Of a DNA stretch of 64,000 nucleotides, positions 12,001 through 15,000 are shown piece after piece. The DNA lies in the NCBI RefSeq assembly GCF_016903815.1, contig NZ_CP069973.1. One strand, given 5' to 3'. Position 1 is the stretch's first letter; each line of letters begins with the position of its first letter. The stretch is from Escherichia coli (GTDB lineage Bacteria; Pseudomonadota; Gammaproteobacteria; Enterobacterales; Enterobacteriaceae). The position numbers are program-made.

Positions 12001-15000
12001 TTTGCCAATGAACACATTGCCAAGCCCTTCTTCCCGCGCATAACGATGACGATACATCAATAATGCGGCAGTCCCGCGGCTGACCGCACATGCTGCCGCC
12101 AGCGATGCAAGGATCGATTCGCCACGCAGAGCCAACTCGCTTAACACCAGAATCTTTGCCAGTACCACAAAAATCAATGCCAGACCGCCGTGGGTGCCTA
12201 AACGGCTATCACGCATGATTTCCAACATGCGATCGCGGCTACGTGCAGAAAATACGCCATCACAGGTATCAGCGAGGCCGTCCAGATGGAATCCCCCGGT
12301 CATCAGCACCAGCACAAGTACGCTAAACAGTGCCGCCAGTGGTGCGCCACACCATGCCTGCAGCACCATGAAGACCAGCCCGCTAATCGCGCCAAGCAAT
12401 AATCCAATCAAAGGAAAAGTAATAATACCGCGAGAATAATGCTCGAAATCCAGTCCCTGGGACCAGCGACGCGGTACAGGCAGACGCGTAATAAATGAGA
12501 GCATCGCCCAAAATAATTTACTCATTTGATTTTTACTCCAATACCCGAAACCACCAGCCATACTTCATTTGCCGCAGCGGCCAACTGCTGATTTACCCGC
12601 CCGGCAATATCACGAAAATGTCGTGCAAGACGACTCTCCGGCACAATCCCCATTCCCACTTCGTTAGTCACTAATACAACCTTTGCGGGGCAACGTTGGC
12701 AGGCAGCAATCAACGACTGAATCTCAGCATTAATCGCCTGTTCCATCGCCTGATAATCCCATTCATCAGGGTCTTTATCGCCGCCATAATCAAACAACAG
12801 ATTAGTCACCATTGTGGTAACGCATTCCAGCAACACAACCTCATTCGGGTTAATGTCTGCATGAATTAATTCATCAAGATGTTGCCAGCGCTCCACTGTG
12901 CGCCAGTGCTCCGGGCGGCCTTGCCGATGATGTTCTATCCGTGCAGCCATCTCATCATCAAGGATTTGCGAGGTGGCGATATACAGAACCTGTGAAGAGT
13001 CCCCAATAAGCGCCTCTGCGTGGCGACTCTTCCCGCTCCGTGCGCCCCCCGTCACCAAAATCATCATACCGACTCCTGATTCAAATGTATGATGGTATTC
13101 ATTGAACAGAACAATGGATCCCCCACCGTTGCTGACCGCAAAACATTTACGCGATTAATACTGCGCGTAATATAATTAAAAATCCAGCATTCTCAATCCA
13201 TTACGAAATAAGATGGCATTACGGAATAGCCAGACTTTCTCGTGTTAACGTCCGACAAAATGTGTCATTGACAGCGGTTTCTGTGGATTGACACATTTCA
13301 TTCAGATAATGAATTAATGCTACTGCCGGACCAACCAGCAAACGGGCATTGTGTTCTGAAATCCAGGCTATTGATTCAACGTCAGCGACAGATCTGCGCT
13401 GTAAAAGAACTTGTAAAACAACGCAATAGAATTATCCGGAATGGTGGCGACTATGCACTAGAACACCACAATTTCGCTCTCTCGGTAAGGCACTGTCACA
13501 GCATTCAACAGAATGTGACTTGCCAGATTTATTAGCGCCACCAGATGTTTAACCGGGTAACCACGACCCAGTCGGGGATATATTCCATCTTCTCGCTGAC
13601 ATCATCAAGAATAAAAAGGTTTATCACACTCAGAGCAACGTTCTTCAGCAGGCGGGATAATTCTTCAACATTTAAAAGATGTGTTATTAAAGGCATACAA
13701 ACTGGACGTATTGTATTTTCTTTTGGTGGTTGACCTAAGGTAGCAGTTTATCCTGATGCGCTGAGATTTCTGTAATATCTACGTCAACATTCTCCTCGAA
13801 TAGAAAATGCAGCCCCGGCAAGTGATTCACATTTTTTAACAAAACGTTGTTAGCGTGCCATTTTCAGAAGCTCTCCAAGAAAGCGAATTCTTTTCTCAAA
13901 TTCTGCATTCTCAGACACAGCTTTCTACTCCATGGCAATGGCCCAAATACGAAGTTGCTCAGGATCATTAGTGGTGCTGAGAAGTTAAATAACCATGCGG
14001 AGTACCACTCGTCATCACGTATTTATATATCATGAAGCTATTGTTGTGTTTTGTACATCAGTAGATGTATTCTGATATACTCCTTTTGCTAGACATAACC
14101 TTTCACCTGCTTGCAAAGCTTCTGTGTTCTGACATTGCCAAATTGTTGCAATTCTGTATCCAGCCTTCTTTCAGTCATAGCTTCGGGCCGCGATAAGACT
14201 CACTGATCTGACCCTGATTCCTCTTGCAGACTTTATAGACCAATTAAAATGCAGTTTCTGCAGGTCAACGTCTGACCATCATTGTCATCACTCTGGCCAT
14301 TAGAGTAACCTTCTGCATTCATCCTTTTGTAAAAAGTTTATAGACTGGCCCCCTGAATCTCCAGACAACCAATATCACTTAAATAAGTGATAGTCCTGAT
14401 ACAAGTTTTTAGAGTAGTCATTAGTGAACAGATAATTGTTAACTTAGAACCAGTAAAATGCAAACGACGCACCACGCTGGGAAAATCGCTGCTATTCAGC
14501 AGAGTTTTGTACCGAGAATTGTGGCCAGCCACTTATTGCTCTCGCGTAAGCAGGTATCCCCATCGTTTACCAGTCCAGCACATCTTGTGGTCAGGCAGAA
14601 GAAGAGCAAACTGTTACTGGACTCACTGCATGCATGGTGGAGAAAAATGCCACGCTATCCAAAAATCCAGACTGGGAGAATGGTTCAGCTGTGTACTGAA
14701 TCAGTGGGGCGCACTCTGTTATTACAGTGTTGACGGTCAGGCGGAGGCAGACATAATGCCGCGGAAAAAGCCCTTTGTGCCATCTGTCTCGGAAATAAAA
14801 ACTTTATGTTCTTCGGCGGCGAGCGCAGTGCACTGTTGTATGGGCTTATCGGCACTTGCCTTCTGAACGACATTGATCCGGAAGCGTATCTGCGCCATAT
14901 CCTGAGCGTACTGCCGGAATAACCTTCCAACCGTATTGATGAACTCCTGCCATGGAACGTAGTTCTCACCAATAAATAAGCATCAATATGATTCTCCATT

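Follow-up and report, generated by a model that had tools for sequence, protein, structure and literature searches.

Features between cobU and the island

We analyzed a 64,000-nucleotide stretch of Escherichia coli DNA (contig NZ_CP069973.1; the window herein), in which an earlier note had described positions 13068–14805 as lacking a convincing intact gene and as being of unresolved origin. The first point was borne out by the ORF list and by six-frame translation, which yielded only short ORFs and no intact gene. The longest ORF of the region (14387–14866, plus strand, 159 aa) extends beyond the region's right end, lies in a frame that differs from that of the underlying transposase homology, and had no Pfam match. 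The origin could be traced: apart from the cobUST promoter, the 1.7 kb is pieced together from six identifiable relics, and almost every base of 13068–14805 is accounted for. The region is not pure spacer, since protein similarity is present, but only to pseudogenised fragments. We found neither an intact small gene nor an intact ncRNA in it, and the sole ncRNA-coding relic, a seekRNA region, is decayed. Within positions 12000–16000 of the window, no Rfam family was detected, and the cobalamin riboswitch (RF00174) gave no covariance-model match at E ≤ 1. The features are as follows.

13068–13218, minus strand: 5′ region of cobU with the cobUST sigma-70 promoter found by promoter scan (−35 TTGAGA at 13196–13191, 16-nt spacer, −10 TATATT at 13174–13169).
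13219–13362, minus strand: X′, a 3′ remnant (~47 codons) of X, a 144-aa ORF that resembles the CbiG N terminus; PGAP pseudogene "cobalamin biosynthesis protein, missing N-terminus".
13358–13371: deletion joint of ~14 bp between X′ and the IS4-family fragment, lying between the end of Escherichia homology (~13357) and that of ISZ homology (13372); source element not assigned.
13372–13559, minus strand: 188 bp from the interior of an IS4-family transposase gene, equivalent to K-12 yeeH and the 3′ portion of yoeG; PGAP pseudogene with an internal stop.
13532–13696, minus strand: WP_001128468.1, the 54-aa ORF to which the peptide of the earlier note belongs; it follows the TnpC frame over residues ~100–151, then runs for 8 codons out of frame into the IS4 fragment and stops.
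13553–14114, minus strand: IS66-family 5′ relic with the last ~85 bp of tnpB (14114–14030), a spacer, and tnpC codons 1–151 (ATG at 13996 to 13553); most of K-12 yoeG.
14029–14057, minus strand: promoter-like site TGTACA-17-CATGAT upstream of the tnpC relic, read from the sequence.
14111–14342, minus strand: what is left of an ISEc11-like IS1111/IS110-family element, namely its 3′ non-coding, seekRNA-coding region, without the transposase gene or the final ~20 bp of the IS.
14341–14552, plus strand: left end of an IS2-like (IS3 family) element, with terminal repeat, decayed orfA start, and an internal deletion of ~33 bp.
14583–15009, plus strand: IS66-family (ISEc23/IS682-like) tnpC 3′ relic with the right terminal repeat, ending ...CGCTTAC at 15009.

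The cobUST promoter and the CbiG-like stub

The cobUST promoter appears with identical hexamers and spacing in the promoter table obtained by genomic SELEX with RpoD (Shimada et al. 2014, PMC3946193). In an alignment of five Escherichia lineages, the sequence of the cobU 5′ region was nearly invariant, and the 98-nt cobU leader showed no unusual fold (z = +0.75) and no Rfam match. This promoter is the only evident functional element of the region, and present cobUST transcription would be driven from it (13169–13196) without PocR or riboswitch control.

Upstream of the promoter, DNA homology to E. whittamii, E69, E1V33, and MOD1 continues from cobU as far as 13336–13357. Full-length X from E. 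whittamii and E69 matched positions 1–122 of the 351-position model for cobalt-precorrin 5A hydrolase (NF004463; E = 5e-20 to 7e-23), with that of E. whittamii scoring 72–81 bits over profile positions 1–126, below the model cutoff of 546 bits. The X′ fragment in the window had no Pfam or NCBIfam match, NF004463 included. X is 144 aa long compared to 351 for CbiG, and may be either a truncated cbiG or a gene in its own right. Homologues of X of 136–145 aa were found across Escherichia. The ancestral order, as seen in E. whittamii, is pduBA (divergent), pduF, pocR, a cobalamin riboswitch, the CbiG-N-like ORF, and cobUST. Besides E. whittamii, the divergent strain E69 and 642 of the 5426 complete E. 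coli genomes keep this arrangement; X is intact in E. whittamii and these 642 genomes, with pocR and the B12 riboswitch upstream. Rfam scored the riboswitch upstream of X at 109–111 bits in E. whittamii and E69. In Salmonella, pocR and the cobalamin riboswitch precede cbiA, just as they precede X in the Escherichia lineages that retain it. Homology between the window and the Salmonella/Citrobacter cbi-cobUST operon ends 13–31 bp upstream of cobU.

Transposase relics and the minus-strand peptide

Blastn against the intact IS66-family element next to terW (L091) showed that the relic at 13553–14114 spans the 3′ end of tnpB and the start of tnpC, with 70.5% DNA identity (E = 1e-72). By tblastn, IS66-family TnpC residues 1–151 aligned to 13996–13553 (E = 6e-23, 46% identity). 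The best intact relatives of the relic on plasmids are also only ~71% identical. The clue to the IS66 identity was provided by searching E. coli genomes for similar DNA at low stringency. Three in-frame stops and two frameshifts interrupt tnpC, which is cut at codon 151, ahead of the DDE domain, and nothing remains of tnpA or the left repeat and little of tnpB; the relic is IS66 family by homology, not a functional member. When ten stop-free translated segments were searched against Pfam and NCBIfam, only the IS4 and IS66 C-terminal fragments were recognised, the N-terminal TnpC relic being too decayed or too poorly modelled for profiles to score.

The second IS66 relic (14583–15009) matched NF033517 (E = 4e-10), PF13817 (30.1 bits, cutoff 30), and PF03050 (E = 3.5e-4), as well as TnpC residues 380–505 by tblastn (E = 4e-12), and had ~83% DNA identity to the 3′ ends of ISEc23/IS682 over 14583–15009/15017. 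As in other members of the family, it carries the DDE_Tnp_IS66_C motif and a terminal ...GCGTTAATGG/CGCTTAC repeat. PGAP annotates it as a pseudogene at 14584–14922, frameshifted and missing its N terminus. The two relics lie in opposite orientations and come from different family members, with ~70% identity to L091 for the first versus 83% to ISEc23 (and no blastn match to L091) for the second. Compared to intact IS66-family ISs (tnpA-tnpB-tnpC; the terW-adjacent element, ISSfl3, ISEc23, and IS682), the window still has the tnpB 3′ end followed by the spacer and the start of tnpC, but both of its copies are truncated and pseudogenised.

The peptide quoted in the earlier note is real and lies in a stop-free minus-strand stretch of 71 codons (13747–13535) that contains the ORF at 13532–13696. 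Its description as a plausible fragment of a degraded gene held, as it corresponds to TnpC residues ~97–151 (tblastn E = 6e-23), but its placement at 13545–13733 was slightly off, those coordinates belonging to an overlapping plus-strand ORF. The peptide stops abruptly because the IS66 relic is fused there to the IS4 fragment. We considered whether WP_001128468.1 could instead be a real small protein that E. coli has exapted from a transposase. It is annotated as a hypothetical protein in some RefSeq genomes by PGAP and is at least 98% conserved in many E. coli. Upstream of it lies the site at 14029–14057, whose hexamers and spacing are those listed for yoeG in the RpoD SELEX table and where RpoD holoenzyme binds in vitro (PMC3946193). 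However, most PGAP annotations omit the ORF, and the 71-aa stretch as a protein query returned only E. coli/Shigella fragments of the same locus, with variable ends and IS2-disrupted versions, and no intact homologue. Furthermore, the last 8 codons are out-of-frame IS4 sequence, the TnpC zinc-finger cysteines are lost, and the ORF had no Pfam or NCBIfam match. Exaptation is therefore very unlikely, and the peptide is dead coding sequence from IS66 TnpC.

The relic at 14111–14342 abuts IS66 tnpB and is homologous to ISEc11 (IS1111 group of the IS110 family, which targets GTGAAAATACTG) through the 3′ non-coding region, the part that encodes the seekRNA in ISEc11 (PMC11187229). It is 74.8% identical (E = 2e-37) to the segment that directly follows the transposase stop codon in L092, an IS110-family element with 88% identity to ISEc11. 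No tblastn match to an IS110-family transposase was found at 13000–15200 of the window; in K-12, the relic runs on into yoeH, which matches residues 284–337 of such a transposase (E = 5e-9). An IS110-family element inside IS66 tnpB occurs elsewhere too: intact ISEc11 also sits inside tnpB of ISSfl3, and strain BH100N carries a relic of the same kind as ours. A deletion at a GCAAnCAGG microhomology has removed the last ~20 bp of the IS and, beyond the canonical target, ~45 downstream codons of tnpB. Compared to ISEc11, the window keeps only the non-coding region and differs in the sequence of the candidate target-specifying loops; the fold has also decayed, with 13 of 58 consensus pairs broken and 8 missing versus 0–3 broken in four other copies.

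There is a slim probability that the relics are not wholly inert, either through an orphan seekRNA usable in trans by a related IS1111-family transposase or through read-through into cobUST from the RpoD-bound promoter, from which transcription through the relics toward cobU is possible. If read-through were true, it would partially replace the lost PocR/riboswitch control of cobUST. Both possibilities are made less likely by the decay of the seekRNA fold and by cobUST having a promoter of its own. That the ISEc11-like relic still encodes a working orphan seekRNA, and so constitutes an ncRNA gene, has a slimmer chance still. Homology along the whole ISEc11 non-coding region would fit such a gene, as would a partly kept central stem with compensatory differences between element subgroups, and seekRNA acts in trans and remains usable by transposases sharing >70% identity (PMC11187229). 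Against it stand the broken and missing pairs, the loss of the right IS end and of the transposase gene, and the fact that, where K-12 has a promoter upstream of yoeH, the window has the IS2-like relic. Rfam cannot judge the relic and offers no family for comparison, since ISEc11 itself has no match.

The IS4-family fragment had 79.8% DNA identity to K-12 ISZ/insZ with sharp ends. IS4 InsG aligned to it over residues 161–217 (E = 2e-4), and it matched the IS4-family profile NF033592 at positions 132–191 (E = 3.9e-5; 22.9 bits versus a cutoff of 115, as expected for a 60-residue fragment). The same transposase part is found in the K-12 ISZ relic between tdk and adhE (80% DNA identity) and in IS4 insG, but the piece in the window is only 188 bp long, has an internal stop, and carries Y in place of the aspartate of the "DKGYYS" motif. 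The peptide lies adjacent to this fragment on the same strand, one strain variant fuses both reading frames, and there is a weak likeness to the IS4 "AIDG...TPD" motif region, all of which could suggest that the peptide is the N-terminal continuation of the IS4-family transposase, parted from it only by a frameshift. We rejected this reading as highly improbable because ISZ DNA homology (~80% in 13372–13559) breaks off sharply at 13559, InsG aligns over residues 161–217 only, and the upstream stretch matches IS66 TnpC 1–151 through 13553. Lastly, 13560–14341 has next to no chance of being the decayed N-terminal two-thirds of a P4-type integrase of a CP4-44-like island: a database source labels one ORF variant "putative integrase", the K-12 annotation puts the CP4-44 boundary here, and several integrase-like motifs could be lined up by eye, but we rejected this reading, since tblastn of K-12 IntA/IntS against 13400–14500 returned nothing (best E = 0.69, wrong strand) and the same DNA matches IS66 tnpB/tnpC (E = 1e-72) and TnpC protein (E = 6e-23), while Pfam/NCBIfam gave no integrase domain and the by-eye resemblance is pareidolia.

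Junctions and probable history of the locus

The IS2-like left end is 83.4% identical to nt 1–175 and 89.7% identical to nt 218–246 of IS2F; it also shares 95.6% identity with a relic that lies between yoeA and yeeP in K-12. Its first ~55 nt are 98–100% identical to IS2 ends on many replicons. With orfB absent and only a decayed start of orfA, it appears to be the relic of an IS2 relative (83% identity). Between it and the IS66 3′ relic, ~30 bp at 14553–14582 form a second stretch without an assigned source. The earlier note had ended the gap at 14805 and so begun an "IS66 remnant" at 14806; actual IS66 TnpC homology starts at ~14578–14593 and is preceded by the IS2-like end, which moves the start of the remnant to ~14583.

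The earlier note had also suggested remnants of a degraded gene at the island's left junction. The gene is degraded, but it is a transposase gene (IS66-family tnpC, yoeG) rather than a host gene, and it does not lie at that junction. The block at 13363–14342 is at least 99% identical in K-12, BL21, O157:H7, and ~3500 of the 5426 complete E. coli genomes, a level that would be normal core-genome similarity. K-12 carries the pseudogenes yeeH (b4639), yoeG (b4640), and yoeH (b4641) between cobU and yoeA, with 99.6–99.7% identity over 12000–14342; yeeH corresponds to 13371–13457 and yoeG to 13464–13996 of the window. Unlike the window, K-12 has IS5H inserted at CTAG 13458–13461. Past 14342, K-12 continues with yoeH (a C-terminal fragment of an IS110-family transposase) and yoeA, whereas the window has the IS2-like end and the IS66 3′ relic. 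In 819 genomes, including this one, the IS2-like left end is followed by this second IS66-family 3′ end, leading into the island. The junction alleles of the locus comprise intact pocR-riboswitch-X, X′ joined to the IS4 fragment, X′ joined to a pduV fragment, and the IS2-like junction at 14341. The lineage-specific island junction is thus re-placed at 14341/14342, where the IS2-like end begins, and the joint at 13358–13371 is an older junction, at which pocR, the riboswitch, and the pdu genes were lost.

Taken together, the region is very probably a non-functional scar of nested, truncated mobile-element fragments plus one cobalamin-gene stub, at the site from which, in most E. coli, the pdu-pduF-pocR-riboswitch part of the ancestral cobalamin/propanediol locus has disappeared. 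What each piece is, where the pieces join, which lesions pseudogenise them, and how they are distributed in the population is shown by the data, although naming of the parental ISs is approximate, the closest intact elements found being ~71% (IS66 5′ relic) and ~75% (ISEc11-like relic) identical. In this lineage, K-12, BL21, and O157, X is cut at about codon 100 and joined to the IS4-family fragment, which in turn is joined to the IS66-family element truncated in tnpC. As for the history, an ISEc11-like element would earlier have inserted into tnpB of that IS66-family element, tnpB being what such elements preferentially target. This order of events, like the deletion mechanism (illegitimate or IS-mediated), is what we infer.

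The region is ordinary and already known, its relics being largely annotated (as K-12 pseudogenes, and several as pseudogenes by PGAP). Known types of relic account in full for the seemingly empty 1.7 kb, whose importance is small beyond tidier annotation. The cobU-proximal side of the locus nevertheless varies within E. coli, with 642 of 5426 genomes keeping pocR, the B12 riboswitch, and the CbiG-N-like ORF and most carrying the scar. This variation provides context for work on cobUST regulation or on the loss and gain of pdu/cob genes in Escherichia.

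Gene content upstream of cobU

The window belongs to an E. coli chromosome; its annotation and the ORF list place asnV, ldtA, cobT, cobS and cobU ahead of a CP4-44-like island, whose far end is a pduV fragment with tmaR/yeeX. The stretch 13068-14805 lies directly upstream of cobU. An earlier note had described it as lacking an intact gene and as encoding a minus-strand protein fragment; the ORF list and six-frame translation agree on the first point, and the peptide is real, corresponding to a stop-free minus-strand stretch at 13747-13535.

Annotated and located features of the region
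12522-13067, minus strand: cobU
13196-13169, minus strand: cobUST promoter site, TTGAGA-16-TATATT
13219-13362: PGAP pseudogene, "cobalamin biosynthesis protein, missing N-terminus"
13371-13559: PGAP pseudogene, "IS4 family transposase, internal stop"
13532-13696, minus strand: 54-codon ORF inside the stop-free stretch, hypothetical protein WP_001128468.1 in some RefSeq annotations
14584-14922: PGAP pseudogene, "IS66 family transposase, frameshifted"

The longest ORF (14387-14866, plus strand) is in a frame that differs from that of the transposase homology underlying it, and a domain search with it gave no match. An Rfam search of window 12000-16000 returned zero families, even at E<=1. Of 5426 complete E. 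coli genomes, 819 contain the whole 1738 bp uninterrupted, while the inner block 13363-14342 is far commoner, occurring in about 3450-3500 genomes, BL21, O157:H7 and K-12 derivatives among them. When 12000-14342 was aligned directly to K-12, we found 99.6-99.7% identity with a sole break, IS5H, at CTAG 13458-13461. K-12 yeeH corresponds to window 13371-13457 and yoeG to 13464-13996, and yoeH lies just past the point matching window 14342. The CTAG is the exact target of IS5H (insH6) in K-12, and the window keeps the uninterrupted state that preceded the yeeH/yoeG split.

Insertion sequence relics

The earlier note had left the origin of the peptide open. Used as a protein query, the 71-residue stretch matched only E. 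coli/Shigella fragments of the same locus. A decayed P4-type integrase, proposed on a by-eye likeness and a source label, was rejected upon finding no tblastn match for IntA or IntS. An N-terminal continuation of the IS4 transposase was likewise rejected, as ISZ and InsG homology end at 13559. The decisive search was a low-stringency DNA search of 13565-14335 among E. coli genomes. Here, 14114-13554 (minus strand) aligned to an intact IS66-family element over the 3' end of tnpB, the spacer and the beginning of tnpC (70.5% identity, blastn E=1e-72), and TnpC residues 1-151 of that element aligned to 13996-13553 (46% identity, tblastn E=6e-23). The peptide is thus an IS66 TnpC relic, covering residues ~97-151 of the zinc-finger region with its cysteines lost. 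Past residue ~151 the next 8 codons are IS4 fragment sequence read in the wrong frame, which is why the peptide stops abruptly. The relic has two frameshifts and three in-frame stops. The proposal that the peptide comes from a degraded gene stands, but the island junction at which it was placed is elsewhere, at 14341/14342. A plasmid search for an intact relative of this 5' relic found none closer than about 71%. TGTACA-17-CATGAT, listed for yoeG in an RpoD SELEX table (PMC3946193), occurs at 14057-14029, just upstream of the tnpC relic's ATG.

The neighboring IS4-family fragment, 13372-13559, shares 79.8% identity with K-12 ISZ (insZ, located between tdk and adhE), with a sharp cutoff at both edges, and represents IS4 InsG residues 161-217 and NF033592 profile positions 132-191.

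On the other side, 14342-14111 (minus strand) matches an IS110-family element (74.8% identity, E=2e-37) in the segment directly behind its transposase stop codon; the element is itself 88% identical to ISEc11. In K-12, this ISEc11-like relic extends upstream into yoeH, which matches the last 54 residues of that element's transposase (E=5e-9). The 3' non-coding region of ISEc11, a member of the IS1111 group, encodes a seekRNA that chooses the target GTGAAAATACTG (PMC11187229); by our reading, this target encodes a motif of IS66 TnpB, V-K-I-L. On a virulence-type plasmid (locus L094, 2332-4121), ISSfl3 tnpB is interrupted by an intact ISEc11, and in strain BH100N (locus L096, 1193-2368) a relic has the same order, IS110' then tnpB' then tnpC'; the nesting in the window is therefore the usual outcome for ISEc11-type elements. 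Taking this recurrence together with the V-K-I-L target as we read it, it thus appears that one IS family homes specifically into another (ISEc11-type into IS66 tnpB). The window lacks the last ~20 bp of the ISEc11-like IS and about 45 tnpB codons, at a GCAAnCAGG microhomology. Of the 58 pairs in a consensus fold of five copies, 13 are broken and 8 absent in the window copy, compared with 0-3 broken in the others, and on this predicted fold 14111-14342 is not an intact ncRNA gene. Rfam is without a model for the seekRNA, since ISEc11 itself gave no match in an Rfam search.

An IS2-like left end starts at 14341 (83.4% to IS2F nt 1-175, then nt 218-246), and over the first ~55 nt it is practically the same as the IS2 ends of many replicons. 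Window 14397-14556 has a 95.6% identical counterpart in K-12, a relic without annotation that lies between yoeA and yeeP. Next, 14583-15009 is about 83% identical in DNA to ISEc23/IS682 3' ends and carries IS66 TnpC C-terminal homology, closed by the family's terminal repeat (...CGCTTAC at 15009). As this homology runs from 14583, the "IS66 remnant" begins about 220 bp before the boundary drawn for it at 14805. It comes from a different IS66-family member than the 5' relic and is in the opposite orientation.

A second TnpC C-terminal relic, at 41677-41838 (minus strand) beside the pduV fragment and tmaR, is 88% identical to 14851-15012. It is inverted, at the far island end, so that the terminal-repeat ends of both relics point into the island; K-12 and BL21 have the right-hand copy only. 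Frameshifts or internal stops are annotated in every one of the first island genes (window 15118-17100 onward; locus L001, 6051-9057), which are a DeoR-like/PfkB kinase fusion, a glutamine amidotransferase and a DMT transporter; the island's left part is therefore decaying too.

The cobUST promoter and the CbiG-N-like stub

The cobUST promoter at 13196-13169 has hexamers and spacing identical to those of the cobUST entry in the RpoD-holoenzyme genomic-SELEX table (Shimada et al. 2014; PMC3946193). Its block shows almost no variation over five Escherichia lineages (alignment A1), and nothing unusual was found in the fold of the 98-nt cobU leader. This promoter is the sole evident functional element of the region.

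We compared cobU loci using one genome per species. In E. whittamii and E69, a divergent lineage labelled E. coli, homology to the window upstream of cobU reaches 13353-13357, and beyond this point their DNA runs on into a complete 144-aa ORF, X, preceded by a cobalamin riboswitch (109-111 bits), pocR and pduF.

Ancestral-type loci
L011 2223-6546: E. whittamii, in the order pduBA (divergent), pduF, pocR, cobalamin riboswitch, X, cobUST
L009 3035-6546: E69

Of the 351 positions in the CbiG model NF004463, X aligns to only the first 122-126, and it has homologues of 136-145 aa in E. marmotae, E. albertii and some E. coli. The window retains just the last ~47 codons (X'), separated by ~14 bp of filler (13358-13371) from the IS4-family fragment. 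pocR, riboswitch and X are retained in 642 of 5426 E. coli genomes (about 12% of complete genomes), and other genomes have differing truncations, including X' fused straight to a pduV fragment; the scar is therefore a within-species polymorphism whose boundary has been hit repeatedly. In c1-17 and N385, the X remnant is annotated directly beside an EutP/PduV-family fragment. This layout suggests a simple pduV-to-X deletion with no intervening island; such a deletion would add one more independent allele at the locus.

A perfect Chi site (GCTGGTGG) lies within X in E. whittamii, E69 and MOD1-EC7003 (A1 columns ~170-190; window about 13336-13345), and in the window a 9-12 nt deletion takes it out. 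X was truncated independently in Escherichia sp. E1V33 and in MOD1-EC7003; the two have unlike upstream DNA, but the homology of both starts at the Chi site; this could be coincidence or Chi-associated recombination. A match to the enterobacterial sRNA family STnc230 (Rfam, 68-70 bits) lies between pduF and pocR on the minus strand (L009 3903-3986 in E69, L011 3889-3972 in E. whittamii), a locus deleted in the window.

A layered scar

The region 13068-14805 is a layered scar, in which the identities of the pieces, their junctions, lesions and distribution are shown by the searches and alignments. The 14341/14342 junction is confined to the window's lineage (819 genomes). The deep junction, 13358-13371, marks where the N-terminal part of X was lost together with the riboswitch, pocR, pduF and the pdu operon; in what order the events took place, and by which deletion mechanisms, is inferred. 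The scar is ordinary, and the K-12 pseudogenes and PGAP pseudogene annotation had in essence already made it known. The added details (that the stub has a CbiG-N origin, and that an ISEc11-like seekRNA relic and an IS2-like one are present) are all of known kinds. The riboswitch and PocR context found upstream of the cobUST promoter in ancestral-type Escherichia is absent in window-type genomes; in ancestral-type genomes, in contrast to K-12-type strains, cobUST would be preceded by a B12 riboswitch.
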